In this document: positions 1,206-58,179 of the stretch, piece after piece | Layout of the letters: every line of letters starts with the position of its first letter | How positions within the stretch are numbered: the stretch's first letter is position 1 | Virus record (IMG/VR): IMGVR_UViG_3300034157_000065 | Location: 32,001 to 96,000 of that record | Strand: one strand, 5' to 3' | From: a virus | Taxonomy: Duplodnaviria > Caudoviricetes | Length of the DNA: 64,000 nt | Notes under the pieces: model-generated | Told to the model about the DNA's origin: nothing | The model's input: only the letters and a program-made list of their open reading frames with translations | Databases searched by the model: none | Made by a program: the position numbers and the translations under genes

Positions 1206-1982
1206 ATGTCACTGTTTGACATTTATGAAAAAAGCAAAAGCAGGGTTTCGCTGAGTGCGGAGCAATGCTTGTACTTTAAAAATGTGCTTGTACAAAAATT
1301 ATCACTTATCAACAACAATTCATTGCTTACATTTGAACAACTTTATAATCGTCTTCATTTTTTTGAGCATAAAACCACTATCTACGATTTTACAGAAAAA
1401 CAAAAATTAGGTATTTCATTATCTTATCGTCTTGATAATATTAATGTTTCAATGTACGTTTATGTTAATTTTGATGATAATGGTGTTTTTAGTAGTCTTT
1501 CTTATCCAACAATGCGAATAGTTGATAAAAATATTATCACCCTTTTACATTTATTTGACTCTAACCGCGATGGAATAGCTTTATCTTTTAATCCATCCGA
1601 ATTAAATTCTGATTATATTATTGATATGTCAGGTGTTTTTTTGTTTGATTATAAGTTCGATTTTAAATTAGATTTATTTTATTATTTTTCGGATCATTTA
1701 ATCACTGCTCAACATTATGTTAGATATTGTAATAGAGGGACAATTAAATTAACAGTAGATACCTTTGATAATATTGAAGCTGAATATCTGTATGTTGATT
1801 TTGTTAATTTGTTATATTCAGGTAATTCCTATTTTTTAAATTCTTTTGTCAAGATCCCCATCAATTTTTCATCACTTAAATTGTTTAAAAAAAGCCGACA
1901 CTTATTTGATATGATTTTGAACAGTAATCACAAAGAAGTTTTGTTAGATGAATTAAAAGTCTATGAGATGGCAACTTATTAA
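1206..1982 (+). CDS. hypothetical protein, family B, C-terminal tag (EMATY)
   Basis: Shares L..KL...NNN..LT.E.L block with 3261, 53130, 53958. Confidence 0.8.
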   Translation: MSLFDIYEKSKSRVSLSAEQCLYFKNVLVQKLSLINNNSLLTFEQLYNRLHFFEHKTTIYDFTEKQKLGISLSYRLDNINVSMYVYVNFDDNGVFSSLSYPTMRIVDKNIITLLHLFDSNRDGIALSFNPSELNSDYIIDMSGVFLFDYKFDFKLDLFYYFSDHLITAQHYVRYCNRGTIKLTVDTFDNIEAEYLYVDFVNLLYSGNSYFLNSFVKIPINFSSLKLFKKSRHLFDMILNSNHKEVLLDELKVYEMATY

Positions 1983-2045
1983 TCATTGAAATGAGTCCTA
2001 TTTTATGCTATAATTAACGATAAATTTTAATGAAGGTTTTTTAAT

Positions 2046-3251
2046 ATGTCACATTCACGCATTGATACGTTGGCTAATGTTATCCATTTGGCTCCCTATA
2101 TTGATTCATTTAACTTCAACCGAATGGAACCAGTGCGTGATGTTGGTGATATGAGTTTTTCAACTCAATATTTTGCTAGCTCACGTTATGACACCTTATC
2201 TATTATTTTTCCCAGCTTTCAAGAAAGCTTAGGGTTTATGTTTTCTGACTTTACCGATTCAGAAATTAAAATGATTGATTCTGCTCTTCAATTTTATCTT
2301 CGATTATTCCCTTATGATCCTTTATTGGACGCTATGAAAGATCCTGTCACAACTGTCTATATGCACAAACGAGACGATTCATTTCTGATGAAGTTTAAAT
2401 GCTTCTCTATTGCGTATCGCTATAATGAATGGATCTTCCAGATTAATGACAAATTTAATAAAGATAGATGTATGTTAGCGATGACTTACGATGAGCTTCA
2501 TATGGCTATACTGAGTGCGTTTGATGCTATGTTTAAGGATATCTTTATGACACACTCATTGATTGTTGATAATAACATTGTTAAGGCTGTGGCTGCCAAT
2601 CAAACCAACTTTGCTTTCTCAACGATGCGTTATAATCATACCTTTACGCATGAAAGTGATATGGACTTTGCCATGCACATTAAAAAATATAATAAATTTA
2701 GGGTGTTTGAAGATCGCCTAAGTAATGAACATATTTTTAATAAAGATGAATTGTGTGTTATTGGTAATTTTACTGTTGAAAAGAATATTATGAGTGTTTC
2801 AAAATTATCAGAAACTCAGATTACTATTCATAATGAGTCTGTTCATTTGTTAGATCATTTATTTAAAGTTTCGCTAAGACCTACAGAACTTGACTATTTG
2901 AAAAACATTCTAGAATTGATGCGGCTTTCTGATAGTTGCTATCCTAATCAAAAAGATACCAAAATTAAGATTGTTCGTTCAAATAACAGTAAGAAAACTA
3001 TTTTTAATTTGATTACAGAACGTTGCCCTTTTACTTTCAGAACTGGACGACACAGTATTACTATTGGTTCTTATATTTCCGTAGGGATTTATATTGAAGA
3101 CGAATACACTTCATTGAAACTACCCTCTTTTGAGGCGGCTTATGAAGCTTGTTATAAAAAATTCATTACACATGTAAGTAAAACGTTAGACATTAAACCA
3201 GAAGATGTGACTGAGCTTCATTTTAAAACACTTGAAATGTCTAATTATTAG
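2046..3251 (+). CDS. hypothetical protein (401 aa), C-terminal tag (EMSNY), TAG stop
   Basis: Long ORF with own TGCTATAAT promoter; last ~30 aa resemble the C-terminus of 57556..58179. Confidence 0.8.
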   Translation: MSHSRIDTLANVIHLAPYIDSFNFNRMEPVRDVGDMSFSTQYFASSRYDTLSIIFPSFQESLGFMFSDFTDSEIKMIDSALQFYLRLFPYDPLLDAMKDPVTTVYMHKRDDSFLMKFKCFSIAYRYNEWIFQINDKFNKDRCMLAMTYDELHMAILSAFDAMFKDIFMTHSLIVDNNIVKAVAANQTNFAFSTMRYNHTFTHESDMDFAMHIKKYNKFRVFEDRLSNEHIFNKDELCVIGNFTVEKNIMSVSKLSETQITIHNESVHLLDHLFKVSLRPTELDYLKNILELMRLSDSCYPNQKDTKIKIVRSNNSKKTIFNLITERCPFTFRTGRHSITIGSYISVGIYIEDEYTSLKLPSFEAAYEACYKKFITHVSKTLDIKPEDVTELHFKTLEMSNY

Positions 3252-3260
3252 GAGAGTATT

Positions 3261-4079
3261 ATGATTGGCGAAATGTTTCTTTTTGAAAAATTTAATATCA
3301 GTTCTTTAAAGACTTCATTAACTGAAAAACAAGTGGCTTCTTTTACCAAAAGATTGACAGAATTGTTGTTTAAATTTAATAACAATCCTGCAATTACAAT
3401 GGATTACTTGGTAGAAAACTTAAAAATCACTGAATCATCAGCTAAATTTAGTAAAAATGACAATCCATCTCGGCCTTTTATTTTTATTGATATTGATTTT
3501 ATGTTAGCGAATACATTGATTGAAGTTCGTATCTCTGCTGAATTCAATAGTGCTTGTTGCCGTATTCCGTTAACTTATTACAAGTATGATATTGCCATTC
3601 AAAAAACAGAACATTCTGGATTATTCACTTTGTTGAATATGTATAAGCCCGGTGTTGGAACTAATTATTTTTATTTTGGCTCATTTAGGGATGACTCCGT
3701 TTATACAGTGACTACAAAAAATGCATTTAAATTTCAACATTACTTTGTTAAGACGACTCGTAACAGATTTCACATAGAATATGTCATTAAGAAAAACAAG
3801 ATTGTATCCAGTCAAATCATTGATGATGAAAATGATGAATATCTCAAGTATGACAATAAGCCACTTTCAGCCCATGATGAAACACTGTTCATCCATTTTG
3901 CAAATGCCGCCTATACAAAAGAGTCTGAATTTGTTAACTCTTTTGTTAAAGGTAGCGTTAATTTTAAAGACATGAAATGTTTTGCTCAGCTAAAAAAGAT
4001 GTTTTTAGACATTTACACAGGTGAACATCGTGAAAGACTTATTGATGAATTGCTAGTCTTTCAGATGGTGGATATTTAA
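3261..4079 (+). CDS. hypothetical protein, family B, C-terminal tag (QMVDI)
   Basis: AGGAG RBS; paralogous to 1206..1982 (both end in an L[LI]DEL.V[YF].M pattern). Confidence 0.8.
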   Translation: MIGEMFLFEKFNISSLKTSLTEKQVASFTKRLTELLFKFNNNPAITMDYLVENLKITESSAKFSKNDNPSRPFIFIDIDFMLANTLIEVRISAEFNSACCRIPLTYYKYDIAIQKTEHSGLFTLLNMYKPGVGTNYFYFGSFRDDSVYTVTTKNAFKFQHYFVKTTRNRFHIEYVIKKNKIVSSQIIDDENDEYLKYDNKPLSAHDETLFIHFANAAYTKESEFVNSFVKGSVNFKDMKCFAQLKKMFLDIYTGEHRERLIDELLVFQMVDI

Positions 4080-4139
4080 GGTTGATTCAGAATGCCAATT
4101 GTAGTATAATAGATCAATTCAAATACAGAGGCTTTCATC

Positions 4140-5640: not shown

Positions 5641-6531
5641 CTATTTAAACATTGCCATGTCTAAGAAATCAATATCTCGCTGATCAAAATAATCAACCTC
5701 GTTAAAATCTTCGTTCAGTAAATTAGGTTTTATCTGATCTATTAATGCAGCAGGCACATACTTGTTTTTGTAAAAATAATGAATTTCTGTTGGCTGATGG
5801 TTTTCATCAGTTATTACAATGGCGGGTGTTATCTTTTCTTTATTAAAGTTGACATGTATGTAGACAATGATGTTTAAATTAAAATAATGATAGCACTTTA
5901 AATAGTGTTCTTTATTTTTATTGTCGCTTAATTCATCATGAAAGGCTCTCATAAAAAAATGACTATGCATGGGGATGAACGTAGCATTTTTATATTCGAC
6001 AATACTGGGTGTGTTTTCATCGTAGTAATAGGATACTTTACCATCCTCTAATTTTGTGAATATTTTTTCAGACAGCAGTATTCCATTCTTATTATTAACA
6101 AGAACATCATTAAAGCTTAGTCGCACTCTCATTTTTTCTTCGTCTACTACCAAATCCAAAAATCTATCAATGTGATCATAGTATTCATGATTGATGGCTG
6201 TTAAACCATTACCAAATAATAATTCTTTAAATTCAGATATATCAATACTTTCTTTATATTTAATTTTTCTTTTTATATCTGTATATTCGTGATATCTTGG
6301 GATGATATTGGTTAATTCATCTTCAATATCAATGTCTTCATTAACAATTAATGGTAATTTCATGTCGTTAGCTTGTTTAAGTTCTTCATATTTATTCTCG
6401 GGTGAAACATATATTTCTGTTTTCGATGGGGCACTTGGCATTATTGTTACTGTTCCATCATCAGCTACGAATTCAATAGGAGATTCATAGGTGACTAGCG
6501 AAATATTTTTAATGACGGTGTGTTTTGACAT
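5641..6531 (-). CDS. hypothetical protein, family A, C-terminal tag variant (DMAMFK), TAG stop
   Basis: GGAG RBS favours MSKH start at 6531; shares YYDENTPSI...PAI...P.E.H..YKN.Y...KPN.L.EDF...YF..RD.DFLDM domain with 8261, 9170, 10052. Confidence 0.8.
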   Translation of the reverse strand: MSKHTVIKNISLVTYESPIEFVADDGTVTIMPSAPSKTEIYVSPENKYEELKQANDMKLPLIVNEDIDIEDELTNIIPRYHEYTDIKRKIKYKESIDISEFKELLFGNGLTAINHEYYDHIDRFLDLVVDEEKMRVRLSFNDVLVNNKNGILLSEKIFTKLEDGKVSYYYDENTPSIVEYKNATFIPMHSHFFMRAFHDELSDNKNKEHYLKCYHYFNLNIIVYIHVNFNKEKITPAIVITDENHQPTEIHYFYKNKYVPAALIDQIKPNLLNEDFNEVDYFDQRDIDFLDMAMFK

Positions 6532-6606
6532 GAATAGCTCCAAAATATTTTGAATAATATCATAATTCAACAATAAAGTCCATTAGTATCATTGTCTATC
6601 TTAATC

Positions 6607-8260: not shown

Positions 8261-9157
8261 TTAAATGTTTAACATGTCTAAGAAATCCATGTCTTTTTTA
8301 CTAAAATAATCTTTATTTTTAAAATCTTCCATCAATATATTGGGTTTTAATAATTCCATTAAGTCAGGTGTAATGTATTCATTTTTATAATAACAATGAA
8401 CTTCTAGTGGTTTGTTATCCATATCATAAATGATAATTGCAGGCACTATTCTTGATTCCTCTGGATTAATCGTCATGTTGACTATTACATTTAATTTCGT
8501 GTAGTGATACATTGCCATGTAGGATTTTTTTGAACCCGCATCTTTTATATCTTCTTCATGAGCCAAAATAACGGTAGACTCTTTAAATTCAATAATACTT
8601 GGTGTGTTTTCATCAAAGTAGTAATCAATCTTGTTATCAGTTTGTTTCAGGAATACTTTTTTAGATAAGATATAATGACGCTCTGTTTCTTCACATTCTT
8701 TGTCATATTTATCTATGTTGTCTATATCAATGTTTACTATCATTGAATTGTCATCAATAATATTATCCATGCAAGCATTCAATGCTTCGTACTTCTCGGT
8801 ATCTAAACTAATGAATTCACGACTAAACAGAATCTCTTGCAGATCATCAACCATGACATCTTTAATGTATTTTAGTCTTGGCTCAATTTCATGATAGTGT
8901 TTATATTCTGGTTTTTTATCGGCCTCTCTTTTAAACAACCTTGTGTTTTGGTAGTAGATTGGTCCTAACAATGATTTTAATGGATTGTTTTGAGCAAATA
9001 CATTGCCTATGTTTAAAGCATTGATATTGTTACCGATATTGTTACTGATGGAACTGTTTATAAATTTGTCTGCAATTTGATGGAGTTGTAAAAAATCGAC
9101 ATCACTTTCCCAATTCGTCTTGAAGATATTTTTGACTCTGATTGTATGTCGTGTCAT
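8261..9157 (-). CDS. hypothetical protein, family A, C-terminal tag (DMLNI)
   Basis: Tandem paralog of 9170 and 10052. Confidence 0.85.
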   Translation of the reverse strand: MTRHTIRVKNIFKTNWESDVDFLQLHQIADKFINSSISNNIGNNINALNIGNVFAQNNPLKSLLGPIYYQNTRLFKREADKKPEYKHYHEIEPRLKYIKDVMVDDLQEILFSREFISLDTEKYEALNACMDNIIDDNSMIVNIDIDNIDKYDKECEETERHYILSKKVFLKQTDNKIDYYFDENTPSIIEFKESTVILAHEEDIKDAGSKKSYMAMYHYTKLNVIVNMTINPEESRIVPAIIIYDMDNKPLEVHCYYKNEYITPDLMELLKPNILMEDFKNKDYFSKKDMDFLDMLNI

Positions 9158-9169: not shown

Positions 9170-10021
9170 TTAAATTAAGATCATGTCTAAGAATTCAATA
9201 TCTCTCACCGTAAAATACTCGGTAGATCTAAAATCTTCTTTTAATATATTTGGCTTCAATTCATTCAGTATTTCTTTTGCAATGTAGTCATTTTTATAAC
9301 AACAGTGAACTTCTAGTGGTTCTCCTTTCATATTTTCTATAATAATAGCTGGAACCACTTTGTTTTCATCTGGATTCACTATTGTATGTACTTTAATACC
9401 TAGTTGAGTGTAATGGTGTAGTTTAAGGTAGGTGCTTTTATTATCCTCAAAAACAAAATGATCAAACCCAGTGATTTTTTTGTCATTCTTTTCTCTGTAT
9501 ACACTTGGACAGTTTTCATTAAAATAAGGAATAAAATTAGACTCATTTTGTATTTTAAAATCTTTTCTTACTAATGTCATTCTTCCGTTGCATGTTCTAA
9601 ACTCCAGATCGATGACTAAACCTTCTGGTAACGTCATCTGATTGATACCGTTTTTTATCCATTCAGCATCTTTCTCATCGAATGTAATAAATTCATTATC
9701 AAATAAGAACGCTTTAAAGTTTTCAACAGTAAACTCATCTTTGTATGCTGGCATCATTTTATTTTCAGGGTAAACATTGAATTCAGGTATTTGAATTTTC
9801 TTTGTGCTCACTTTATTATTTGTATGGTTTTGATAATACATTGATTTTAAACCTGTTGGAGTAAAACTAGCCATAAGGTCACGTAAGAATTTTGGATTGC
9901 TGAATGCAAAAGGATTTACCGTATTTGATAACTTATCAGCACCTATAACAATCAAACCATCTATATGGTTATCTTCAACTTCTGGGTAAATCGTTATTCT
10001 ATGTTTTGATTTGTTTGCCAT
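9170..10021 (-). CDS. hypothetical protein, family A, C-terminal tag (DMILI)
   Basis: GGAG RBS favours the MANK start; conserved EVHC.YKN and KPNIL.EDF blocks. Confidence 0.85.
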   Translation of the reverse strand: MANKSKHRITIYPEVEDNHIDGLIVIGADKLSNTVNPFAFSNPKFLRDLMASFTPTGLKSMYYQNHTNNKVSTKKIQIPEFNVYPENKMMPAYKDEFTVENFKAFLFDNEFITFDEKDAEWIKNGINQMTLPEGLVIDLEFRTCNGRMTLVRKDFKIQNESNFIPYFNENCPSVYREKNDKKITGFDHFVFEDNKSTYLKLHHYTQLGIKVHTIVNPDENKVVPAIIIENMKGEPLEVHCCYKNDYIAKEILNELKPNILKEDFRSTEYFTVRDIEFLDMILI

Positions 10022-10051
10022 TGTATTCTCCATTTGCTTTTACTTTTATTT

Positions 10052-10906
10052 TCAAATCATTACCATGTCTAAGAACTCTATGTCCCTTTTATCAAAGTAG
10101 CCATCATCTTTAAAGTTTTCTGATAAAATGTTAGGTTTTATTTCTTTTATAAGATCATTTGAAATATACTGATTTTTATAATAACAGTGGACTTCAAGTG
10201 GATGGTCATCAAGATCAGTTACTACAATAGCAGGCACGATTCTTTCAGCCACTGGGTTTTTGATTAGTCTGACCCATATACCAAGTTCTTTGTAATAATG
10301 GAGTTCCATATAGCTCTGTTTTGTTTCATAGTTAAAAACATTATTACTACTGATAATATTTGAATTTTTACATTCGATAACGCTTGGTTTTGAATTATCG
10401 AAGTAGTAGACCAATTCATTATCAATATTTTTTACGAATGTTTTCTTGTTCGCAAAAAGCTTCTCTTTATCGTTTACAAAGCTTAAATGGACTGTCATAT
10501 CAGCATTGTCAACTGAATTGTCTAACAGTTCAATAATCGTAGCCTCATCTTCGCTGACGATAACAAACTCATTGTTGTACAAAAATTCTTTAAAATTGGT
10601 AAGATTGATGTCCATTAGATGTTCATATTTCTTTTCATTTTTTGGATAGCTATTGAATTTAGGAAAGGACTCAATCCAAGAATCAAATAGCGTCATGTTC
10701 ATCGGCGTTATAGGTGGCATATTTAGTATAGGTAATGAAAATGTTGATTTAGTTCTTGGCTGCACACCATTTTGGCTTACACTTTGACTTAAACTTTGTT
10801 TTGTATTATTCCAAAAATGTGAAGGTGTCGGCATCCCAAACAAAAGATCTTCGTCTCCCCAATTAAGGCCATGAATGAAATTTATTGTTATTTTATGTCT
10901 TGACAT
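10052..10906 (-). CDS. hypothetical protein, family A, C-terminal tag (DMVMI)
   Basis: GGAG RBS favours the MSRH start; same conserved C-terminal domain. Confidence 0.85.
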   Translation of the reverse strand: MSRHKITINFIHGLNWGDEDLLFGMPTPSHFWNNTKQSLSQSVSQNGVQPRTKSTFSLPILNMPPITPMNMTLFDSWIESFPKFNSYPKNEKKYEHLMDINLTNFKEFLYNNEFVIVSEDEATIIELLDNSVDNADMTVHLSFVNDKEKLFANKKTFVKNIDNELVYYFDNSKPSVIECKNSNIISSNNVFNYETKQSYMELHYYKELGIWVRLIKNPVAERIVPAIVVTDLDDHPLEVHCYYKNQYISNDLIKEIKPNILSENFKDDGYFDKRDIEFLDMVMI

Positions 10907-11000
10907 AATGTTCTCCAAAGACCTTATACCTTATCACAAATTTACTTAAAAATCCAGCTTTTTCTTTACCCTAAAAAGCATTAAAAAATAAAAAAAGATG

Positions 11001-22894: not shown

Positions 22895-23298
22895 TGAATA
22901 ATTCCCATGCTGAACGTATTAATTTGAAGGTTTTGCGGCCTTATCATAACCATAACGAAAGATTGTTCAACAACCTTCGGGAAGCTCATGATTTTGCACC
23001 AAAAGTAGCCCAACAGATGGCTTATGAAGCTTTGCTAGTTGAAGATCGAGCTTTTGATGGATTGTTTCGTAAAATTAGAAGTTTTGTTTTAAAAACAGAA
23101 TATGAACCATTAACCAGTATTGAGTATTCCATTTTTGATGGAGCTATCAACTTTTACAAAAAAAGCATTGAAGAATCAAAAGTAGAGTTGGTCGCTCGCA
23201 TGGTTACGCAACCCGTGATTGATGCTTATGTTGAAAGCCAAAAAGAAACGGTTCAACTGGCTGAAAAAATCATTAGTAAGATCCTTAAATCAGTCTGA
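22894..23298 (+). CDS. hypothetical protein (134 aa)
   Basis: AGGAGG RBS before GTG. Confidence 0.75.
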   Translation: MNNSHAERINLKVLRPYHNHNERLFNNLREAHDFAPKVAQQMAYEALLVEDRAFDGLFRKIRSFVLKTEYEPLTSIEYSIFDGAINFYKKSIEESKVELVARMVTQPVIDAYVESQKETVQLAEKIISKILKSV

Positions 23299-23740
23299 TT
23301 TCAAGGGCTAGTTTTTCTTTTTCGACATCTTTGAATAGCTGATTGAAGTCAAATACTATTTTGGGGATGTCGATAATTTTATATGTTTTGTCCATTTCCA
23401 TTTTTTCATAAATTGATATGTTCATTCTAGGATTTAGATGTTCTTTATTTTGATCGATAATGAAAGCGTCTCCATAATGATTGTCTCCCTTGTAAATTTC
23501 GTGCATATGTCCACGTCCCGTTATAACACGATAAGCATCATTTTCTTTAAAGATATGTATTCCAAAATAATGAAATAATTCTAAGTCTTCATGCATTTCA
23601 ATTCTTGATAAATCTATCATCTTTTCATAATAATTTAATTTCAGTTGAATGTAGAGATCATTAATTATCTGGTCATCTTCTGGTTCTTGATTGATTATAT
23701 ACTTGGCAATTCTAGGAGTGACTTTCATAATGGTCCTCAT
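23285..23740 (-). CDS. hypothetical protein, tag-like C-terminus (LEIRLI)
   Basis: ORF; start may be the MKVT ATG at 23728. Confidence 0.7.
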   Translation of the reverse strand: MRTIMKVTPRIAKYIINQEPEDDQIINDLYIQLKLNYYEKMIDLSRIEMHEDLELFHYFGIHIFKENDAYRVITGRGHMHEIYKGDNHYGDAFIIDQNKEHLNPRMNISIYEKMEMDKTYKIIDIPKIVFDFNQLFKDVEKEKLALEIRLI

Positions 23741-25081: not shown

Positions 25082-25158
25082 CTCTGCGTAGCTCAGTTGG
25101 ATAGAGTGCTCGCTTCCGAAGCGAACGGTCGTTGGTTCGAATCCAACCGTAGAGGCCA
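25082..25158 (+). tRNA. tRNA-Arg(CCG)
   Basis: Cloverleaf: acceptor CTCTGCG/CGTAGAG, D loop AGTTGGATA (A20), anticodon loop TTCCGAA, T arm GTTGG-TTCGAAT-CCAAC, G73, encoded CCA. Confidence 0.93.
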
Positions 25159-25571: not shown

Positions 25572-26360
25572 TTAAATTGCCATCATTTTAATAATGGTCA
25601 GATTTTCATCTAGTCCGCTATCAAATACGCCAGTTTTATATAATTTTTTCATTTCTGTATAAAATAGCTCTAATGTTTCATTACTATCAACATTTCTAAT
25701 ACTGAATTGTGGATACAGATCGATGAACGTCTCTAATGATTGTAAAATAACGTTTATATTTTTGTTAAAAAATTCATCAAAGTTATCTATACTTTCAACA
25801 TCAGCTTTAAAAACCATGTCTTCATTATTCGATTTGTAATCGTAGAGAACTAATAAATCTTTTGTTTTCTGTCCATCTGCAGTAAACGAATACCTTACCA
25901 TGAAATCATCATACGATGTGTCTGTCATATCAATTGAACGCTCTACATCATAATCGAGCATGTCATTATGTGCATTTATATCAGCGTCTACGGTAAAGAA
26001 TTGACTTGTCGCTGGGAACTTTACACGGTTATTATAAATACCAACCTCAGTCGAAAAGCTTATATTTTTAAAATTTCCCAATTTATCGTAATTAAAGCGA
26101 AGATTACCAGCAAGATTTTGAAAACCGTAGACGACGATGGCGGTTCCATTATCACCTACCATATAACGCTCAATTCGAACTGCATCAAAATTTGTTTCTG
26201 AGTCAAACGATTGATTAATTTGATTAAACCAATGAACAATCCTATGTTTAAAATAAAATTGATATTCTGGTTGCAGTTTAACCATGACTATTCGTCTATC
26301 TTTTAAAATAGAAAAGTCAGGATTCAAGTAGTCGAATGTTACCGTTTCATCAGTTTTCAT
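25572..26360 (-). CDS. hypothetical protein, C-terminal tag (KMMAI)
   Basis: 262-aa ORF coupled to the upstream gene; weak family B resemblance. Confidence 0.8.
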   Translation of the reverse strand: MKTDETVTFDYLNPDFSILKDRRIVMVKLQPEYQFYFKHRIVHWFNQINQSFDSETNFDAVRIERYMVGDNGTAIVVYGFQNLAGNLRFNYDKLGNFKNISFSTEVGIYNNRVKFPATSQFFTVDADINAHNDMLDYDVERSIDMTDTSYDDFMVRYSFTADGQKTKDLLVLYDYKSNNEDMVFKADVESIDNFDEFFNKNINVILQSLETFIDLYPQFSIRNVDSNETLELFYTEMKKLYKTGVFDSGLDENLTIIKMMAI

Positions 26361-29394: not shown

Positions 29395-29420
29395 ACTTAA
29401 CTTATTTGGAGAAATAGACT

Positions 29421-29828: not shown

Positions 29829-29883
29829 ATTGTGTTAACAAAAAAGCCATCTTCGGATGGCTTTTTTATTCTTTTAAATCTAT

Positions 29884-30924: not shown

Positions 30925-31062
30925 GAAAATTCTCCTTTGCATAATTAGACCACTATCCTATTAAATGTCAATAATTTATGAAAACATTAAAATTTTGGTT
31001 TATTTTTTATTGTAAATGTGGTATTATCTCAAAATATTTATTCATATTAAGAGGCATTGTTA

Positions 31063-31986
31063 ATGCAAATCATTCATCATAATAAAACCACTGTCCAAAG
31101 ATCGTCTAAAAGAACATTATCTGCTAACTTGTTGTCTTTTCTTGATGAAACAAGCCAACGATTCGGTTTTGATAATGCTCAAATCTATCATTTAACACAT
31201 AGTAATGTTGGTGATTATAAAGATATTATTATGACAACCATTAAGGAGCATTTAAAGAAAATGCGAGGTCTTGGGCCAAAAGATAAAATGGAGGAAGTCA
31301 TTAAAGAAGCAGATCGCTATTATGAGGAACTTCAACCTATTTTACCAACGTCTATGATTGTTTTTGAGCATATCTATTTCTCTGTAACTGAATCATCTAT
31401 GTTGTTTTTTAAAGAACATAATGAAATGTTATTTATTGAAAATATTATGTCTACTTTGGAATTAAATCGCCCACATTTTATTATTGACAACCTTATTATG
31501 CCCAATGGTAGCTGGAAAATGCCTGTTGTACAATCCATTGCTTATGAAAGTTCGAGTGTGAAAGGAACTTTTCCGTTTCTATCATTTCTGTTTCCCTACA
31601 ATGAAAAAACGTCTAAAATTGATTTTAGTCAACGTGAAAAAGCTCACAATAAAAAACTCGAATTACAAGTCAGAACACTTCGTATGGGCCAAGATGAAGC
31701 TATAAAACTTAAGATTCCACATAACATAGACAGTTTTAATATTAATCTTGATAATGCCTATGTTTTCAATACTCGGTTAATACATAATGACATTATTATT
31801 TTTAACGAATATGATATTTCAATCAATGATGATCGTAAAACAGTTGTCGCATATTTAATGCCGTTTCTTGAAGATTTACAAGAAAAGTATGAAATCAATG
31901 ATGATGTTCCAGTGACTTTAACAAAAGAATATTATGACTATTTTAAGGCTAATATTAGGCCCGTTATTGACATGGTAATGTGCTAA
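31063..31986 (+). CDS. hypothetical protein, C-terminal tag (DMVMC)
   Basis: GAGG RBS; ~307-aa ORF. Confidence 0.8.
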   Translation: MQIIHHNKTTVQRSSKRTLSANLLSFLDETSQRFGFDNAQIYHLTHSNVGDYKDIIMTTIKEHLKKMRGLGPKDKMEEVIKEADRYYEELQPILPTSMIVFEHIYFSVTESSMLFFKEHNEMLFIENIMSTLELNRPHFIIDNLIMPNGSWKMPVVQSIAYESSSVKGTFPFLSFLFPYNEKTSKIDFSQREKAHNKKLELQVRTLRMGQDEAIKLKIPHNIDSFNINLDNAYVFNTRLIHNDIIIFNEYDISINDDRKTVVAYLMPFLEDLQEKYEINDDVPVTLTKEYYDYFKANIRPVIDMVMC

Positions 31987-32085
31987 CAAGTTACTGACAA
32001 ACCTGCCCGGTTTGTGATATACTATGCACCTATTATTGAAATGTTAAAATTTAACCCATTGTTCACTATTTAAGAGGATTTAATA

Positions 32086-32828: not shown

Positions 32829-32884
32829 TTGTCTTTAATTTAATTTCATGCTATAATCAACCAAACTTTTTGGAGTGTTATTAC

Positions 32885-33496
32885 ATGGCACATGAAGAAC
32901 AATTGAAGACCGTTGTGGATCGTATGAAATCTGTCTATGATATTGACATTATCAGTATGTGTTTGGTTAAAAATCAACATACTATTTATACAGCCAAGAC
33001 ATCTCTTGGCCCCGCTCGTATTTATATTCACAATATGTGTGCTAACATCACTTTCACATCAAGTATCGTTTTTGATGGTCAAAATCTCAATTTAAAGAAA
33101 GATGGTTCTAACCTTCAGCCCATTGTTGATGATATTAATGAACGAGCGATGGTGCTTAATGTGGTTAAATTGAAAACGATGGGTGGTAAACATATCCATT
33201 TCTTCGAAGATACTAAGTTTACGCTTAAATTCATTGTTAGCTATGCTTTAAAAAACCCACAAATTGTTTTTAAGGCTGTTCCTTATCCCCATTATGCCAA
33301 GTTTGTGTTTCTGGATGAAGTTGATTATCCGGGGTGTCAAAAAGAATTCCAAATCTCCTATATTCGAGATACTTTTCAGTCAATGTATGGCATTGATCAA
33401 GCCTTCCATTTTGTGCATGATTACTTTAAATCTAAAAAGATGACAATGGATGATGTTGTGAGATTAACAGCCCTTAATGATATGGTGATGATATGA
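32885..33496 (+). CDS. hypothetical protein, C-terminal tag (DMVMI)
   Basis: GGAG RBS favours ATG 32885; first gene of a three-gene tagged run. Confidence 0.8.
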   Translation: MAHEEQLKTVVDRMKSVYDIDIISMCLVKNQHTIYTAKTSLGPARIYIHNMCANITFTSSIVFDGQNLNLKKDGSNLQPIVDDINERAMVLNVVKLKTMGGKHIHFFEDTKFTLKFIVSYALKNPQIVFKAVPYPHYAKFVFLDEVDYPGCQKEFQISYIRDTFQSMYGIDQAFHFVHDYFKSKKMTMDDVVRLTALNDMVMI

Positions 33497-34140
33497 AAAG
33501 CTATAACGAATCGGACCCCATCCATCTTACTAGTATTGAGTCTGCACGTAAAATTCTGGTTGCTAAATTTGGCATTGACTTTACTAATGTAACCCGTGAA
33601 AGCCACGGAGACTATGTGGCTTCTGGGAAATATCCTGTCGATATTTATGCTTTAAACCACACCGATCTATACATTGGGATTAAAAATTTATTGCATCTTG
33701 AAAATGGTCTTTTAGTTTCAAAACTCAATGATCCTATGATTAATGAGTTCGTAAGAGATATGAACTCTTTCTTTTATATTTTCGACGCCTTACGTTTTAC
33801 AACGTGGTATAAAGATGTATTCTATTCTATTTTAGATAATATTAAACCTTCTATTATTTTCAAATATAATATTGAGTGTGATGATATGATGATTCATCTT
33901 GACTTAAACCCCAGTATTGAATCAGAAGATTCTATTTACATCACAACAAAAGATATCATTATTCAACATGGTTATGAACCCGCTGGTTTTAAAGCCGTCT
34001 ATCATGCAAATGGTTCGAACTATTTCAGTGATTTGTTGACTTACAAAACTAGACTTTTAAAGGTTTGGAATATTGATGAAAATAGTAGTGATATTGACTA
34101 TAAACGTCTTGGCGATTTAACTGACATGATTAATATTTAA
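33493..34140 (+). CDS. hypothetical protein, family C, C-terminal tag (DMINI)
   Basis: ATGA overlap; shares IQH.YEP.GF and IDYKRLG.L.DMI.I with 34145. Confidence 0.8.
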   Translation: MKSYNESDPIHLTSIESARKILVAKFGIDFTNVTRESHGDYVASGKYPVDIYALNHTDLYIGIKNLLHLENGLLVSKLNDPMINEFVRDMNSFFYIFDALRFTTWYKDVFYSILDNIKPSIIFKYNIECDDMMIHLDLNPSIESEDSIYITTKDIIIQHGYEPAGFKAVYHANGSNYFSDLLTYKTRLLKVWNIDENSSDIDYKRLGDLTDMINI

Positions 34141-34144: not shown

Positions 34145-34870
34145 TTGATGATGACTGATGCTATTAAATCTAATGAAGAACAAGAAGAATCATCGTATGG
34201 ACGAGCATTACGAGAGTTTGTTTTTACGCCTGAACCTCAGAAATCAACTCGTGAAAAGGTTATGGATGTTAAACAATTGATTTTTGAGCATCTAAATATC
34301 TCTATTCATAATATGGAACCATCTTTATTTGGTGAATACACTGCAAAATCAGATGATGGGCATGATGTTAATATCTATTTATCTGGCTTTGGTGATGTTT
34401 GTTTTGCATTTGACAACATCATTACGCTTGATAATGGAATCGTTTCATCCGCCTTAAAATCGCCTATCATTCAGACTATGTTGAAAGATGTCAATCAATA
34501 TTTAGGCATTACTGAAAGTTTTCGTCTGACTAACGATCACATTGAACATTTGCCAGTTTTACCCAATGTTAAACCTTGGCTTGTGTTTAAATATATGAAA
34601 GAAACTAATAGCATTACTATTCAGGTTAGTTTTAAAATTTCTCTTAGATCAACAGGTGAGGCTTATTATTTAACGACCAAACAGACAGCCATTCAACATT
34701 TTTATGAACCATCTGGTTTTAATTGTATTTACTCAATTACAGGCGACAGTATTACTAATGATATTCAACATTATAAGGAACGTATGCTAAATGTATGGGG
34801 ACTTAACGAAGACGGCCAAGAAATTGACTATAAAAGACTTGGGGTATTGTCGGATATGATCAGTATTTGA
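34145..34870 (+). CDS. hypothetical protein, family C, C-terminal tag (DMISI)
   Basis: Tandem paralog of 33493. Confidence 0.8.
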   Translation: MMMTDAIKSNEEQEESSYGRALREFVFTPEPQKSTREKVMDVKQLIFEHLNISIHNMEPSLFGEYTAKSDDGHDVNIYLSGFGDVCFAFDNIITLDNGIVSSALKSPIIQTMLKDVNQYLGITESFRLTNDHIEHLPVLPNVKPWLVFKYMKETNSITIQVSFKISLRSTGEAYYLTTKQTAIQHFYEPSGFNCIYSITGDSITNDIQHYKERMLNVWGLNEDGQEIDYKRLGVLSDMISI

Positions 34871-38248: not shown

Positions 38249-38830
38249 TTGTTCAGAAAATTTATTAATTATATAAAATTAGATAAAACAACTATTCTTA
38301 TACTTGTTGCTATCTTATCCTTCAAGTCTTTTGCGTATAATCCATCTTATGTGCCTACTGGATCAATGATACCTACCATTGATGAGAAATCATTTATACT
38401 GGTCGATGTTCATAGTTATGGCCTGAAAATACCTTTTACTAAAATTGAGATTTTAAAAACAGGTCATCCAGAACGTGGTGATATTGCTGTGTTTAGAATG
38501 CCACTGGATGAAAGCACCAATTATGTAAAACGTATTGTGGCAGTAGCGGGTGATACTGTTTATTTCAACGATCATTCATTTAAAATTAATGAAATACCAA
38601 CTGACATGCCTAACATGAAGAAAGCTGTTGTTCCAGTCGGTTACTATTTTGCTATTGGTGATAATATTAATCACTCCTACGATAGCCGTTTCTGGGGTTA
38701 CGTTCCAGAGAGTAATTTAGTGGGTAAATATGTCACCACATTGCTCAGTTTGAATAAGATATTGCCTAATTCAGACAAGCCTGCAGAGCACGAAAAACAT
38801 GGCGAAGAAAAACTCAATTTGCAAAAATAA
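38249..38830 (+). CDS. lepB: signal peptidase I (S26)
   Basis: Box B TGSMIPT (catalytic Ser), box C RGDIAVF, box D YVKRIVAVAGD (Lys), box E GDN...SYDSRFWG.V. Confidence 0.92.
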   Translation: MFRKFINYIKLDKTTILILVAILSFKSFAYNPSYVPTGSMIPTIDEKSFILVDVHSYGLKIPFTKIEILKTGHPERGDIAVFRMPLDESTNYVKRIVAVAGDTVYFNDHSFKINEIPTDMPNMKKAVVPVGYYFAIGDNINHSYDSRFWGYVPESNLVGKYVTTLLSLNKILPNSDKPAEHEKHGEEKLNLQK

Positions 38831-51734: not shown

Positions 51735-52382
51735 ATGAGAAAATCAATTACTGTCACCACCATTGAAGAATTGAAATCAGTTGCATTTGATTACAATGCT
51801 CCGGTTTTTGTTGCTCCTGATATTCTTATCAGTGACTTTATTGCTACTGATGATGAATGTGATAAATTATTGGCTAACTTGAAAAATTATCATAAAGATG
51901 TGATTGCTTTCTTTTTTGTCCATGAAGGTTTTCGTGTTTACTTCTTAATTATTGATCATTTTGTTGTATTGAAAAAATATGCCATTGATAATGTAACGAT
52001 CCTTAATTTGAAAAAATTTGTGATTCAATCAGTTCGTTTTGATTCAAGTAGTCACGAGTGGGAAGAAAAACAATTTTATACTTATAACCGTGGAAATAAA
52101 CCTGAAAGTGTTGTCCGCAATTATGGATCTTTTATTGCTAAGTATCGCTATGTTTATGATAAAACCTATGTGAGCCAAATTAGAGTCACTGATCAATCCC
52201 AATACCTTATTGACATGACCTTTAAACGCAATGGTCGGGAGATAACATTGGTCGAATTGGCAGCAGACTATCCAGAAATTGCATCCGCTTTGAGAGGTAA
52301 AGTTCGATCAATTGAAAACCTTACCAACAAAAGCAAATTGATTAAATCTTATCTACCTATTATTGATATGATTCTTATTTAA
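51735..52382 (+). CDS. hypothetical protein, family D, C-terminal tag (DMILI)
   Basis: Shares N-terminal TIEELK...F with 52392. Confidence 0.8.
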   Translation: MRKSITVTTIEELKSVAFDYNAPVFVAPDILISDFIATDDECDKLLANLKNYHKDVIAFFFVHEGFRVYFLIIDHFVVLKKYAIDNVTILNLKKFVIQSVRFDSSSHEWEEKQFYTYNRGNKPESVVRNYGSFIAKYRYVYDKTYVSQIRVTDQSQYLIDMTFKRNGREITLVELAADYPEIASALRGKVRSIENLTNKSKLIKSYLPIIDMILI

Positions 52383-52391: not shown

Positions 52392-53021
52392 ATGCTATTA
52401 ATCAATACCATTGAAGAGTTAAAAGACTGTCTGTTCTCAGTTGAGCACACTGGCCGCTTTATCAAACCTGTTCAAGAATTCGTTAAATCGGGTGAGATTA
52501 TTAAACCCGAAAACCGATCAGAATATATTTATGTACTGGATAACTTGCACACCATTCACTTTCAATTGAGTGAAGATCTTATTGTATTCAAAGGTTTTCA
52601 CATTAAACGAGAAAAAAATTATACGCTTCATAGATTAAATGATCTTCCTGCTACTATGTTCTATTTGAAAAATGGTATGCTTAACACCACTAGCTGGTAT
52701 GTGAATAGCAACGCTGTTCGTGACAATCCCATGAAACCAGTACTCGTTGATCGTCGTGAGGGTGACTACTGGACTTTCCAGTATGCAGGTAGCAATGATG
52801 GTTGCTTTGAGATGTCTCACATTATCTATGACAAGCGTAAGAAAGGTGAGTGGCGTGTAATGGATATGTTGGCTAGGCGACGTGGACAAAACATGAATTT
52901 TAAAGAGATTAAAAAACAATTTCCTTTTGTTGAAGATATTACATTTGATGATTGCTATGACCTTAGTACAAATATTTTTACTGCAGATCAAGTAACCTTG
53001 ATGCGAATGATTGATATTTGA
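52392..53021 (+). CDS. hypothetical protein, family D, C-terminal tag (RMIDI)
   Basis: TAAGGA RBS; tandem with 51735. Confidence 0.8.
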   Translation: MLLINTIEELKDCLFSVEHTGRFIKPVQEFVKSGEIIKPENRSEYIYVLDNLHTIHFQLSEDLIVFKGFHIKREKNYTLHRLNDLPATMFYLKNGMLNTTSWYVNSNAVRDNPMKPVLVDRREGDYWTFQYAGSNDGCFEMSHIIYDKRKKGEWRVMDMLARRRGQNMNFKEIKKQFPFVEDITFDDCYDLSTNIFTADQVTLMRMIDI

Positions 53022-53129: not shown

Positions 53130-53942
53130 TTATATTTCGATCATTTCAATCAGTTTTAAGTAATCCATAAAAGCTACTTTGTTATCACCATTAAAATTAT
53201 CATAAAATGAGTTATTGACCACTTTAAACCAATTGTTGTCTTCTAAGTTAATAGTTTTAGGATTAAAGAAGCTTGAGTCTACCTCTGATTTTACATTCAT
53301 GACGTGTTTGGTAAATCTTAACAACATCATTTCTGTTTCAACATCACCATTAGAGTTTAGTGAGTAACTTGTACCACTAGATTTAACTATATTTTTCAAT
53401 TCAAATGTTTTACGGCAAATTTTATGGTCTTTGTCGAAGAAATATGTCATATTCGCTATCTTTCTTAAATGCAACAAAATAACCCAGTGTTTTTGCTTGA
53501 TGGCATACGTTGAACCATAGTAATCTTTCTGTATATAAAACTCTAACTGGTTGGCACCGTTATTAAAATGATTTAAGTTTAAGTAATTGATTAATGTTGA
53601 TTCCATTAAATCACCCTTATATTGAGCAGTGTAATGAGTTTGTTGACCAGTATCATCGTAATATACATACATGGACAAATCAAATTCACAGTCAAACAAT
53701 TCAAATAGGTTAAATTTAAAAGTAATGATAATGCAATCACTGGCTTTTTCCGATACATAAAAAGAGGTTTCATCTTTTACTAAATGAAGATGTTCTTCAA
53801 TTAACTCTTTGGTTAAATTTGGATTATTGTTAATTGCTATTAATTTTTCACACATCATGGCCCTAATAATTTCAAAGTGTTTGTCTTTGAGCTTATTATT
53901 TGTAGATAAATCTTCAAAATGTGGAAAATATAATTTCATCAT
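53130..53942 (-). CDS. hypothetical protein, family B, C-terminal tag (EMIEI)
   Basis: Tandem paralog of 53958 (LN.NHFN, F.KHV, GD...AF.DY). Confidence 0.85.
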   Translation of the reverse strand: MMKLYFPHFEDLSTNNKLKDKHFEIIRAMMCEKLIAINNNPNLTKELIEEHLHLVKDETSFYVSEKASDCIIITFKFNLFELFDCEFDLSMYVYYDDTGQQTHYTAQYKGDLMESTLINYLNLNHFNNGANQLEFYIQKDYYGSTYAIKQKHWVILLHLRKIANMTYFFDKDHKICRKTFELKNIVKSSGTSYSLNSNGDVETEMMLLRFTKHVMNVKSEVDSSFFNPKTINLEDNNWFKVVNNSFYDNFNGDNKVAFMDYLKLIEMIEI

Positions 53943-53957: not shown

Positions 53958-54749
53958 TTAAATTGCTATCATGTCTATTACATTCATATAATCTAAGAAC
54001 GCTGTTCGTTTGTCACCTGTTAAGCTTCTGAAAAAGTATTTATGAACGTCCCGCATCCATTCTGATTGTGTAAAATCTATATCATTGTAATTGATAAATG
54101 AGGCATCAACAAAATCTCTTTCAGTTATGACATGTTTTACAAACTTTAAAAACATAAGTTCGGTTTCAAACTTCTCAAAACCTTCCATTGAATAATTAGA
54201 ACTTGAATTATTAATTTTTGATTCAAACCCACGTAAATAAACCTTATGCTCAGTGTCAAAACGATATTTTAAAGTAGTTCTTATTTTTGGATATTCTGGT
54301 GTTTTTATATAATTTTCTTTGATGATTTCATATATAGTTTTATTGTTTGTATCTTCATCTAATGAAAACTCTAATTTAGAAAAATCGTCATTAAAATGAT
54401 TAATATTTAAAAGATTCATTACACTTAAATCATTTTTTGATCCCATATATGTTGAATGCCATCTATTGTATTGTCCATGTTGATTAAAATATAAATGTAC
54501 AGGTATTACAATATAACAATCGAAAAAATTAATAGCAAAGTTAACTGTACAGTAATCCTTAGTGTTATAAAATTTGGTAGTTGTTCCATAAATCCCAAGG
54601 TTACTTTGAATATCTTCGTTTGTGATATTTTGATTATTATTCATTTTTACAAATTTTTCGTACAATAATTCCCACACCTTACCTTCTTGGTCTTTCGCAA
54701 GGTTGGGGTTTCTTGATAATTCTTCGTAATTTGGAAATGAAAGATACAT
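53958..54749 (-). CDS. hypothetical protein, family B, C-terminal tag (DMIAI)
   Basis: GAGGA RBS on the minus strand. Confidence 0.85.
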   Translation of the reverse strand: MYLSFPNYEELSRNPNLAKDQEGKVWELLYEKFVKMNNNQNITNEDIQSNLGIYGTTTKFYNTKDYCTVNFAINFFDCYIVIPVHLYFNQHGQYNRWHSTYMGSKNDLSVMNLLNINHFNDDFSKLEFSLDEDTNNKTIYEIIKENYIKTPEYPKIRTTLKYRFDTEHKVYLRGFESKINNSSSNYSMEGFEKFETELMFLKFVKHVITERDFVDASFINYNDIDFTQSEWMRDVHKYFFRSLTGDKRTAFLDYMNVIDMIAI

Positions 54750-55715: not shown

Positions 55716-55749
55716 TATATCTTTAACTTTTTAAAATGAGGTATTTGAC

Positions 55750-56739: not shown

Positions 56740-56741
56740 TT

Positions 56742-57089
56742 ATGATCAATTCAAAACAAGTATTTAAAGCAGGCTTATGCAGTATCTTGGGATCTGTGTC
56801 ATTCTCACTTTTCTTCTGGAATAGTTATATGCTCTCGACAGGTCGGTTTATGGTCTGGAAAGCATTTGAAGGGGATTCTCACCTCCTAATGTTCGCTTTA
56901 TTCCTTATGCCATTACTGATTGGTTTGTCTGCCGGATTTGGTATGATTTTTTATTCATTTAATCTAGAAAGTAAAGAAGCCGACAAAAGAATGCAAGATC
57001 GAATAGCACTCAGAGATAAGCAATTAGAAGATACTACATTAAGTAGCCTAGAAAGAATTGATATAATTCTAGGTAACAACCAAAACTAA
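56742..57089 (+). CDS. 2-TM membrane protein
   Basis: Two hydrophobic segments. Confidence 0.65.
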   Translation: MINSKQVFKAGLCSILGSVSFSLFFWNSYMLSTGRFMVWKAFEGDSHLLMFALFLMPLLIGLSAGFGMIFYSFNLESKEADKRMQDRIALRDKQLEDTTLSSLERIDIILGNNQN

Positions 57090-57110
57090 CCAACCTATGG
57101 GAGAACTCAT

Positions 57111-57491
57111 ATGACAATAGCTCAGAAAGACAATGAAAGTTTTGTTAACGCTATCCGCTCAATGACTGAAAAGTTTATTGCTCTGTTTGAAACTCACTCG
57201 GTATCCAATGATTTTTCTTGGTTTAAATTTCGTGATGACACACTTTTAACTGCTATTCAACATTCCTTTGGTGAATTGACTAAGGAAGAATTGATAGAAT
57301 ATCAGCGTGTCTTTAATCAAGTCATGGTTGAACATGGTTACAGTATCACTTCTGTAAATCACCTTGACGATAAAGTCGAATTATGGCATGATACCCCTTC
57401 ATTAAATATGGAACTTCACGAATATCTTGGTATTGCTTGGGGTGATTATCATCATTTTATGTTTGGTCGAGATATTTATTTGAAAAAATAA
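57111..57491 (+). CDS. hypothetical protein (126 aa)
   Basis: GGGAG RBS; WH....LHEYLG..W..Y motif. Confidence 0.7.
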   Translation: MTIAQKDNESFVNAIRSMTEKFIALFETHSVSNDFSWFKFRDDTLLTAIQHSFGELTKEELIEYQRVFNQVMVEHGYSITSVNHLDDKVELWHDTPSLNMELHEYLGIAWGDYHHFMFGRDIYLKK

Positions 57492-57555
57492 CTCCATAGA
57501 TTTTTTTCTTGAACAGTTTTTTTAATAATTTCAACTCTTAGCTACGGATCAAAAT

Positions 57556-58179
57556 ATGAATGTCAATGCGGCTGAAACAGATAGCTTTAAAGAACTGTTT
57601 ACTGTGTTCGCTAAGGAACACGATATAACGGTGGGACGTTATTGTGCAGTCAAACTGCTAAGTTTCTACAATTATAATTTTGATCCGGTTCTGCTCTTTC
57701 AACTGGATGCTGATTTGGTTGCTCCACTTGTCTTAAAACCTTTTAAACATTTTCATGTGAAAAAGCTAGTCACCCGCTTAACCGATTTTTTGGGTGAAGT
57801 CGTTGAAGATAGTTTAGAGGGGTTTCTTTCCGCCGACTTCTTTGATCAATTCATCCTTCACAACATTCAAAACATTGTATTGAAAGAAGGGTATACCAGT
57901 GTTCACGATGTGGCTTATTATCAATTAGAATTGATCAGCACATCTACACGCCTTATGGTGAATTTTCATACTGAACCTGCACAGCCTAGATTTTATAGAA
58001 ATACAGAAATGAAGGGATCTATTAAATACCTCAATATGGATGTTTATTATCGAGATTTTGAATCACTCAGAGAACCTATGTTGGCATATTATGCCGATGA
58101 AATTGGTAAATTCCTCAATATTCCAGTGAATGAAATTGACGATAACGTTTTGAAACTGGTTGAAATGGTTAAAATCTAG
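57556..58179 (+). CDS. hypothetical protein, C-terminal tag (EMVKI), TAG stop
   Basis: C-terminus resembles that of 2046..3251. Confidence 0.8.
   Translation: MNVNAAETDSFKELFTVFAKEHDITVGRYCAVKLLSFYNYNFDPVLLFQLDADLVAPLVLKPFKHFHVKKLVTRLTDFLGEVVEDSLEGFLSADFFDQFILHNIQNIVLKEGYTSVHDVAYYQLELISTSTRLMVNFHTEPAQPRFYRNTEMKGSIKYLNMDVYYRDFESLREPMLAYYADEIGKFLNIPVNEIDDNVLKLVEMVKI

Follow-up and report, generated by a model that had tools for sequence, protein, structure and literature searches.

What can it mean that many proteins of one virus, on both strands and with bodies that do not resemble one another, close with the same few residues? The question is raised by a 64,000-nucleotide stretch of tailed-virus DNA (the window), which makes up bases 32001-96000 of the IMG/VR record IMGVR_UViG_3300034157_000065, a 192,830-bp single-contig virus record that is referred to here as G000. 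A sequence-only reading of the window had listed about 18 proteins from dissimilar families with a methionine (Met) at a fixed distance from the chain end, and had proposed that this ending is a tag by which the proteins dock on a common hub. The analysis reported here finds the tag on 57 of the 303 proteins called in G000 and throughout the clade to which G000 belongs. The tagged proteins (termed carriers) are best described, in our view, as a clade-restricted, fast-diversifying class in which variable bodies end in a constant helix that would bring them into contact with a single invariant partner, and to this interpretation we would assign a probability of somewhat under one half (about 0.45).

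A helical tag at the extreme C-terminus

With positions counted back from the last residue (-1), 57 of the 303 proteins called in G000 end M-x-x-[ILVYCFM], where composition predicts 3.6 such ends and the rate at which the pattern occurs internally predicts 2.9; when the last 30 residues were shuffled 2000 times, the mean was 3.3 and the maximum 10. The stricter ending [DE]-M-x-x-I was observed 26 times against an expectation of 0.08, and has 15 internal occurrences in approximately 57,000 residues. From position -1 to position -12, the Met counts in G000 are 2, 11, 14, 61, 4, 2, 4, 4, 13, 2, 4 and 10, which sets the 61 at -4 against 2-14 at the other eleven terminal positions, and the chain ends exactly three residues past the Met in 55 of 56 carriers. 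In a 437-kb relative (G003), Met stands at -4 in 102 of 596 proteins versus 8-18 at other offsets. The tag was not seen in the control sequences: Met is found at -4 in two of 68 proteins in the first 50 kb of RaK2 (the motif in none), in one of 31 in T4 and in none of 25 on an Acinetobacter contig, and RB69 is likewise without an excess. A chance origin of the tag is excluded. Both the specificity for the C-terminus, as compared with internal and shuffled sequence (57 against approximately three expected in G000), and the fixed distance from the end had been proposed from the sequence alone and hold up; the scale had been set too low at about 18, as G000 alone has 57 carriers per 193 kb and the tag is clade-wide.

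The conserved element is longer than the residues around the Met. A position matrix of 14 residues, which was trained on G003 only and then run on G000, replaced a 20-residue HMMER tail profile whose scores were too low to use; 41 of the 303 G000 C-termini pass it, at a threshold that is reached by six of 52,363 internal windows. When the Met column is masked, 31 of the 303 C-termini still pass versus 0.3 expected (an enrichment of approximately 100-fold), and the tag is thus a module of 14-20 residues, more than one Met. Its consensus opens with a polar N-cap and acidic residues, often [LI]-[ST]-x-[DE]-[DE], which begin a helix of 14-20 residues, and continues with a hydrophobic residue at -13, another at -9, L/I/V at -7, a hydrophobic residue at -6, D/E/K at -5, M at -4, I/L/V/Q at -3, any residue at -2 and I/Y at -1, where the chain ends freely. 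Several polar residues recur from group to group: D/E at -5, R at -10, D at -11 and K at -12. The Met is essentially invariant and the neighbouring hydrophobic positions exchange L, I, V and F freely, a combination that is unusual for generic core packing. Proline or glycine occurs within the last 12 residues of 13% of carriers versus 52% of other proteins.

Carriers in the window

All 18 C-termini quoted in the sequence-only reading are present on retranslation, and in 16 of them Met stands exactly at -4 and the chain closes in a hydrophobic residue. Of the listed proteins, 17 bear the tail, one of them as a variant; the coordinates of that earlier list were the low coordinate of each open reading frame, not the position of the tail. 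The seventeen genes, with lengths in amino acids (aa) and families or clusters where assigned, are as follows (window coordinates).

1206..1982 (+): carrier, F4, 258 aa, ...DELKVYEMATY; the ortholog in relatives (L015/L016) retains the tail
2046..3251 (+): carrier, own cluster c8, 401 aa, ...HFKTLEMSNY; orthologs in L015/L016 end ...HFKTLEMSSY, and the G003 homolog, ...NLLEMVRH, retains Met at -4
3261..4079 (+): carrier, F4, 272 aa, ...ELLVFQMVDI
5641..6573 (-): member of F3, 310 aa, ...DIDFLDMAMFK, a variant of the family tail that closes in F-K; the variant is also found in the relative L001 (...DFLEMVMFK)
8261..9157 (-): carrier, F3, 298 aa, ...DMDFLDMLNI
9170..10033 (-): carrier, F3, 287 aa, ...RDIEFLDMILI; modelled with AlphaFold2
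10052..10918 (-): carrier, F3, 288 aa, ...RDIEFLDMVMI
25572..26360 (-): carrier, singleton, 262 aa, ...ENLTIIKMMAI
31057..31986 (+): carrier, singleton, 309 aa, ...IRPVIDMVMC; start uncertain (TTG at 31057 or ATG at 31063)
32870..33496 (+): carrier, 208 aa, ...LTALNDMVMI; its last 4 nt are shared with the carrier gene that follows
33493..34140 (+): carrier, F6, 215 aa, ...LGDLTDMINI
34145..34870 (+): carrier, F6, 241 aa, ...LGVLSDMISI
51735..52382 (+): carrier, 215 aa, ...SYLPIIDMILI; tagged homolog in G003
52392..53021 (+): carrier, 209 aa, ...QVTLMRMIDI; the G003 homolog, ...VLDMIFQ, retains Met at -4
53130..53942 (-): carrier, F4, 270 aa, ...DYLKLIEMIEI
53958..54749 (-): carrier, F4, 263 aa, ...DYMNVIDMIAI
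57556..58179 (+): carrier, 207 aa, ...NVLKLVEMVKI; tagged G003 homolog (E = 1e-63)

The eighteenth protein of the earlier list (23285..23740, -; 151 aa) is not a member, because it ends ...KLALEIRLI with no Met at -4, its matrix score of -3.0 lies below the threshold and its counterpart in L015 ends ...ITLEITQF. A scan of the window for overlooked carriers of at least 50 aa found none.

Two further observations concern these genes and their C-termini. In the ENA contig ERZ27268020 a TnpB/Cas12f-like gene (L001 14294-16066) adjoins the F3 array, and is absent at that place in G000. Some of the largest proteins without the tag, encoded at 12058-13524 (+) and 47106-48785 (-) of the window and at 28837-30663 and 30675-32393 of G000, have basic tails that close in Ile (...NKQNYKI, ...IKKPKI, ...KSLKNNSI and ...KSDNKASI), and these may represent a second class of C-terminus.

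A large class of diverse proteins

The carrier set, which was drawn from G000, G003 and flanking loci, holds 183 proteins that fall into 89 phmmer clusters, or 85 after iterated jackhmmer. Carriers are encoded on both strands and have few N-terminal membrane-like segments (6 of 132), as had been noticed at the outset. They lie in tandem arrays: 44 of 57 have another carrier next to them, whereas shuffles gave 19 on average and 36 at most. In 16 of 21 clusters, among them all ten of the largest, conservation is higher in the tail than in the body (for example 0.42 versus 0.22). In family F3, indeed, the last 30 residues are near-invariant among sequences that have 28-50% overall identity to the query, and this invariant tail includes the polar residues R277, D278 and D283; the first 100 residues diverge. 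A search of 1.84 billion representatives with a profile of family F1 recovered 66 proteins, essentially all of 240-270 aa, of which 57 bear the tag and the remainder are fragments, frameshifted or spurious; from this it follows that the class is confined to the clade and that the tail is never lost.

The families are hard to join. Shallow profiles merge only F9 with g008 and F5 with g000, deeper profiles merge c10 with c11, and the comparison of F1 with F3, profile against profile, gives a probability of 0.6%, most family pairs being below 6%. The earlier description of the carriers as belonging to dissimilar families is accurate in part: iterated sequence searches leave 85 groups apart, and F1-F2 and F8-g043 do merge when deeper profiles are used. 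Neither Pfam nor PHROGs gave a match for the 18 proteins listed from the window, a feature search of the ESM Atlas with F1 and F3 gave no usable match, and the lone DEDDh match among carriers is to a protein ending ...KKIMDLN, in which the Met at -4 is due to chance. Neither the motif nor the carriers were found to be described in the literature searched, in Pfam, in PHROGs or in structure libraries, in agreement with the sequence-only reading, which had not recognized the motif. High-scoring sigma-70-like promoter matches lie directly upstream of some carrier genes; the number of such sites equals that in shuffles, so the sites do not establish when carriers are expressed.

A docking handle or a structural helix

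According to the interpretation favoured here, about a fifth of the phage genes would encode a mostly soluble class of 190-350-aa proteins, arranged in tandem arrays, in which each carrier consists of a variable alpha/beta body and then a constant terminal helix of 14-20 residues. The helix would serve as a handle that joins many variable bodies to one phage or host partner, and the repertoire would act as adaptors or effectors that can replace one another on a shared hub. As long as the protein is free, the helix probably packs against its own body, as the models suggest. Precedents for such an arrangement are the clamp-binding C-terminal tails of T4 gp43, gp55 and gp33 and the F-box-like domain at the C-terminus of poxvirus ankyrin families, both described below. 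We infer the docking step, in which the constant helix contacts an invariant partner, because the tail is the best-conserved part of the protein, its polar positions are kept, the Met is invariant and the end is exact, and because groups that have no other similarity all bear the tail.

The principal competitor is a purely structural helix. The carriers would then derive from one ancestor that has diverged beyond recognition, the tail would be the most constrained element of the core (a folding nucleus), the last hydrophobic residue would close that core and so fix the chain end, and there would be no common partner. We regard this as a serious possibility and rank the docking handle above it; the two interpretations are not mutually exclusive.

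A number of results weigh against docking, and most of them suit a structural role. Firstly, Pfam searches of 130 carriers returned no real domain, only chance or sub-threshold matches; were the tag portable, one would expect to meet it on a few recognizable proteins at least, and none of these carriers was so recognized. Secondly, carriers are narrow in size, with a median length of 249 aa and a 5-95% range of 188-353 aa as compared with 58-472 aa for other proteins. Because no known domain is found and the sizes are tight, a large part of the carriers may belong to a single hyper-diverged class and not be unrelated cargo. Thirdly, part of the set is demonstrably related at the level of sequence profiles: the F1 profile (55 sequences) aligns to F2 over 154 columns (79%, E = 1.6e-5), and F8 merges with g043 (87%), likewise over at least 150 columns. 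These merges point to common descent rather than to a tag added to unrelated proteins, and the tandem arrays described above point to duplication and divergence. Fourthly, the tail is not set apart by its helical hydrophobic moment (mean 0.24 versus 0.27 for other C-termini, without separation); it is hydrophobic on several faces and not clearly amphipathic, which fits burial. Lastly, a hub was sought in six records, G000 and its relatives G001-G005, and searches for the gp45, beta-clamp, PCNA and PDZ families and for homologs of the T4 replisome found none.

The structure models belong with these points. AlphaFold2 models cover two carriers, one each from F1 and F3. That of the F3 protein encoded at 9170..10033 (predicted local distance difference test score, pLDDT, 76; predicted template modelling score, pTM, 0.76) is disordered at the N-terminus and continues as an eight-stranded alpha/beta body; its tail forms a helix (residues 276-286, pLDDT 79-88) after a confidently modelled stretch without regular structure. 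The F1 model (pLDDT 88, pTM 0.84) consists of two N-terminal helices, eight strands and five C-terminal helices (189-258), of which the tail is the last (244-258, pLDDT 84-95) and follows the other four (189-242). The helix that had been proposed for the tail is thus borne out in both models, and a high-confidence tail helix that lies within the predicted fold fits a purely structural role. Both proteins are predicted to be alpha/beta with approximately eight strands and C-terminal helices, and differ in the order of their secondary-structure elements. Fold searches gave no convincing match in the PDB with Foldseek (F3), in VIA-align wide and BFVD (both models) or in the Atlas (F1); the best Z score for the F3 model was 3.0, and the N-terminal part of F1 is cystatin-like at a Z score of 7.6, which is within the range of chance.

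What tells against a structural role without a partner is the pattern of constraint in the tail. The Met at -4 is held whilst other hydrophobic positions swap, whereas drift would be expected at a generic core position from which a single mutation leads to Ile or Leu. A C-terminal helix with a structural role can normally be extended, yet the chain stops three residues past the Met with the single exception given above. The polar residues at -5, -10, -11 and -12 are kept across groups, and F1 and F3 share neither profile similarity nor the order of their secondary structure.

A stronger version of the docking handle can also be put forward, and we consider it doubtful: the tag would be the basis of proteome-wide addressing, in which one dedicated receptor reads a helix with an obligatory Met at -4 and thereby couples more than 100 fast-evolving effector bodies per genome to one machine, for example a hub for degradation, compartment import or DNA tracking. 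If true, such an addressing system would be a viral counterpart of F-box-like substrate-adaptor repertoires, and new in its sequence, its scale and its reader.

The tag is of consequence whichever interpretation applies. For the majority of genes in huge phages no function is known; here one sequence rule (Met at -4 in a terminal helix) sorts approximately 15-20% of the clade's proteome into one class and offers a concrete experimental handle on that class. A docking handle would show how a virus plugs hundreds of fast-evolving proteins into one machine, and the tail would lead to the central hub of the phage's accessory repertoire. A purely structural helix would make the carriers a case of extreme divergence around a single invariant element and, to our knowledge, one of the largest lineage-specific expansions in a phage. 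Either interpretation bears on what huge phages do with their extra DNA.

Candidate partners for the tag

Bacterial beta-clamp motifs include QLDLF and QADMF. In phage T4, gp43, gp55 and gp33 are unrelated proteins that carry interchangeable hydrophobic-acidic C-terminal tails, through which they bind the sliding clamp (PMC2988020). By analogy, the best lead for the identity of a partner is a sliding clamp, and the carriers could be clamp clients, tethered by their tails to a DNA clamp of the phage or the host in the manner of T4 and RB69. The end of RB69 gp43, ...SLFDMFDF, agrees with the tag wherever the pattern is defined, Met at -4 included, and the sequence SLDFL[FY] in T4 gp43 and gp55 is near the F3 tail [IM][DE]FLDM. 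As an account of the tag we nevertheless hold it to be improbable. The clamp families PF09116, PF02916, PF02768 and PF00705 are unmatched in the six records, which include the 437-kb G003 and are possibly incomplete, so that a clamp encoded in another part of the genome, or that of the host, may yet serve; jackhmmer searches with gp45 of T4 and RB69 found no homolog, and gp41, gp43, gp44, gp45, gp46, gp47, gp55, gp62 and UvsX of these phages have none either. PolB was not found in the six records, nor PolA in G003. The conserved part is a helix of 14-20 residues, not a peptide of 5-7 residues after a loose linker, and the identity expected of clamp clients, in replication, transcription or repair, is seen in none of 130 carriers, none of which has a nucleic-acid-related domain. 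The resemblance to the T4 and RB69 tails is, moreover, one selected from among many known C-terminal motifs.

Recognition at the C-terminus is a feature of SspB, ssrA and FtsH alike, and the tag could act as a degron or, like SspB, as a tether, by which the carrier itself or a host protein that its body binds would be handed over to an AAA+ protease of the host or to one of the small trypsin-like proteases of the phage. A hydrophobic tail with a free C-terminus at a fixed distance suits this idea, as does the presence of proteases: G000 encodes three paralogous trypsin-like proteins of approximately 200 aa (PF13365, E = 4e-6), and M48, S49 and M3 peptidases are encoded in G003 together with DnaK. 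The sigma-70-like matches upstream of some carriers add little, because the site count equals that of shuffles. This explanation is nonetheless very unlikely, given that the trypsin-like matches fall under the family cut-off, that the proteases and the carriers are unlinked by position, and that the helix is modelled as confidently folded, whereas degrons are usually exposed. A search of the six records for a PDZ domain (PF13180, E <= 0.1), such as would read the tag as a class II ligand (hydrophobic-x-hydrophobic-COOH), gave no match. The three paralogs (approximately 200-234 aa) are encoded at 118648-119286 (-), 131162-131866 (+) and 187405-188007 (+) of G000; the first and the third are those that match the trypsin-like family weakly (PF13365, E ~4e-6, short of its cut-off), the second is tied to them through BLAST only, and none of the three has a PDZ domain.

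Short C-terminal signals are also used for sorting, as by the loading peptides of encapsulins and by the acidic-then-hydrophobic C-terminal motifs of type I secretion substrates. A sorting signal into the capsid, another phage compartment or a secretion channel would accord with a large class of variable bodies, mostly without membrane-like segments, and with the presence of two virion-protein paralogs in the window. We give it slimmer odds still: capsid, portal, terminase and secretion genes were not recognized in the available DNA, loading a fifth of the proteome is implausible, and the helix is modelled as part of the fold. A search for the Gp23 capsid family in G001 and G002 also found nothing, and carries no weight because it gave no match in the control genomes either.

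There remains a signal in the nucleic acid rather than in the protein. The codons for Leu, Val and Ile at -7 and -6 vary freely, those seen at -5 are GAA, GAT, GAC and GAG, and the Ile codons at -1 (ATT, ATA and ATC) are in line with genome usage. Carrier genes use all three stop codons and have no nucleotide information 3' of the stop; a Shine-Dalgarno-like sequence stands ahead of 1% of tag Met codons versus 51% of gene starts. The free choice of synonymous codons and the use of all three stops indicate that selection acts on the protein. A translation start at the ATG nine bases ahead of the stop, or else a motif in the RNA or an element for coupling, would account for ATG being the sole fully invariant codon in the tag (at -4 Met and ATG are indistinguishable, because Met has a single codon), but is largely refuted and has next to no probability in our estimate, as hydrophobicity is held at -13, -9, -7, -6, -3 and -1 through freely changing codons, both synonymous and non-synonymous, as stop codons, sequence after the stop and Shine-Dalgarno-like sequence show no such constraint, and as C-termini are still marked approximately 100-fold over expectation when the Met is masked.

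Genome, relatives and host

G000 is a fragment of an uncultivated huge phage. Its G+C content is 34% and its CheckV completeness estimate is 59%; genetic code 11 suits it, and reading frames were not improved under alternative codes. Its relatives are known from metagenomes only and comprise four IMG/VR fragments (152-181 kb), a 204-kb ENA contig and G003 (437,043 bp, rated 98% complete), in which the region from 320 to 437 kb corresponds to G000 by synteny. No match to the window DNA or to the F1 and F3 proteins was found in 50,697 phage records by blastn and tblastn. IMG/VR classes G000 as a trimmed 'provirus', a class that is given to all five fragmentary records of the clade (G000, G001, G002, G004 and G005). 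On a contig of JGI 3300034156 (L019 10816-12344) the DNA runs on past the right end of G000 and encodes two more tagged F8 paralogs, which indicates that the trimming cut within phage DNA.

Because of the identities of its tryptophanyl-tRNA synthetase (TrpRS) and DnaK sequences, the phage probably has a gammaproteobacterial host. The TrpRS of G000 has 68.6% identity to its counterpart on an Acinetobacter contig, and the DnaK of a relative has 73% identity to dnaK in a record named Pseudomonas phage Y6 and 64-66% identity to dnaK of Salmonella and Acinetobacter. The top match to trpS, labelled 'Acinetobacter phage MD-2021a', is actually a bacterial contig and was kept as a hint at the host only.

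Most genes of G000 belong to no family, and the recognizable remainder is of a kind common in large phages, namely T4-type Rnl1 and Rnl2 RNA ligases, a RegB-like RNase, frr and TrpRS, together with signal peptidase I, Sir2, deaminases and GNATs. The features placed by coordinate are as follows (window coordinates unless stated).

16289-18652 (-) and 19775-22141 (-): paralogs of 787/788 aa, which match phrog_2155 'virion structural protein' and T4-like cyanophage proteins (S-CAM1 and S-PM2) over residues ~43-180; the sole virion-like genes seen in the window
25082-25158: tRNA-Arg(CCG), the only call made by ARAGORN in the whole window
38249-38830 (+): signal peptidase I (PF10502, E = 7e-34), kept in the 437-kb relative
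58198-59346 (+): Rnl2-type RNA ligase with a PHA02142 OB domain
103413-104567 (+) of G000: T4 Rnl1-type RNA ligase; the RegB-like endoribonuclease is encoded elsewhere in G000

G003 (L031-L052) encodes DnaK, GatA/GatB, several aminoacyl-tRNA synthetases and enzymes of NAD synthesis, in addition to M3, M48 and S49 peptidases, copies of TnpB and nine DEDDh exonuclease paralogs; no protein encoded there is longer than 778 aa. PolA, PolB, the clamps, Terminase_6N and the HK97 capsid family were not matched in G003 by Pfam, and either these hallmark genes are very divergent or the record is incomplete.

Comparison with known systems

The clamp clients of T4 and RB69 are like the carriers in that a short hydrophobic-acidic peptide stands at the extreme C-terminus of unrelated phage proteins. 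T4, however, has three to a handful of such clients with known functions in DNA and RNA metabolism, whereas there are approximately 57 carriers per 193 kb here and they have no recognizable domain. The T4 tails are 6-8 residues long and follow a loose linker, in contrast to a helix of 14-20 residues that is modelled within the fold, and T4 has the gp45 clamp, whereas a clamp gene was not found in up to 437 kb of related DNA.

The ankyrin-repeat/PRANC families of poxviruses are large, fast-diversifying and tandemly arranged; their variable bodies bind the targets, and a constant C-terminal element docks on one hub of the host (Skp1/SCF). The likeness to the carriers lies in the variable body, the constant element at the extreme C-terminus and the tandem arrays. 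PRANC is an F-box-like domain of approximately 40-50 residues, its ankyrin bodies are recognizable and its partner is known, whereas the carriers have one helix and bodies that are not recognizable.

Encapsulin loading peptides are rich in Gly, Ser and Leu, extended, and placed after disordered linkers, and the capsid-targeting sequences of T4 are N-terminal and cleaved. Like the tag, both are short terminal peptides common to unrelated cargo, which they guide to a single shell protein; unlike it, they have neither a Met at -4 nor a helical N-cap, and no gene for a shell was seen here. SspB and C-terminal degrons likewise present a C-terminal peptide to one hub, but the ClpX-binding peptide of SspB (LRVVK) is basic and occurs on a single protein, its sequence and that of the tag are unrelated, and no link to a protease was found here. 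Shared terminal docking peptides are already known from such systems; what is new in the present case is the sequence of the tag, its helical form, the proteins that carry it and, above all, the scale on which it is used.

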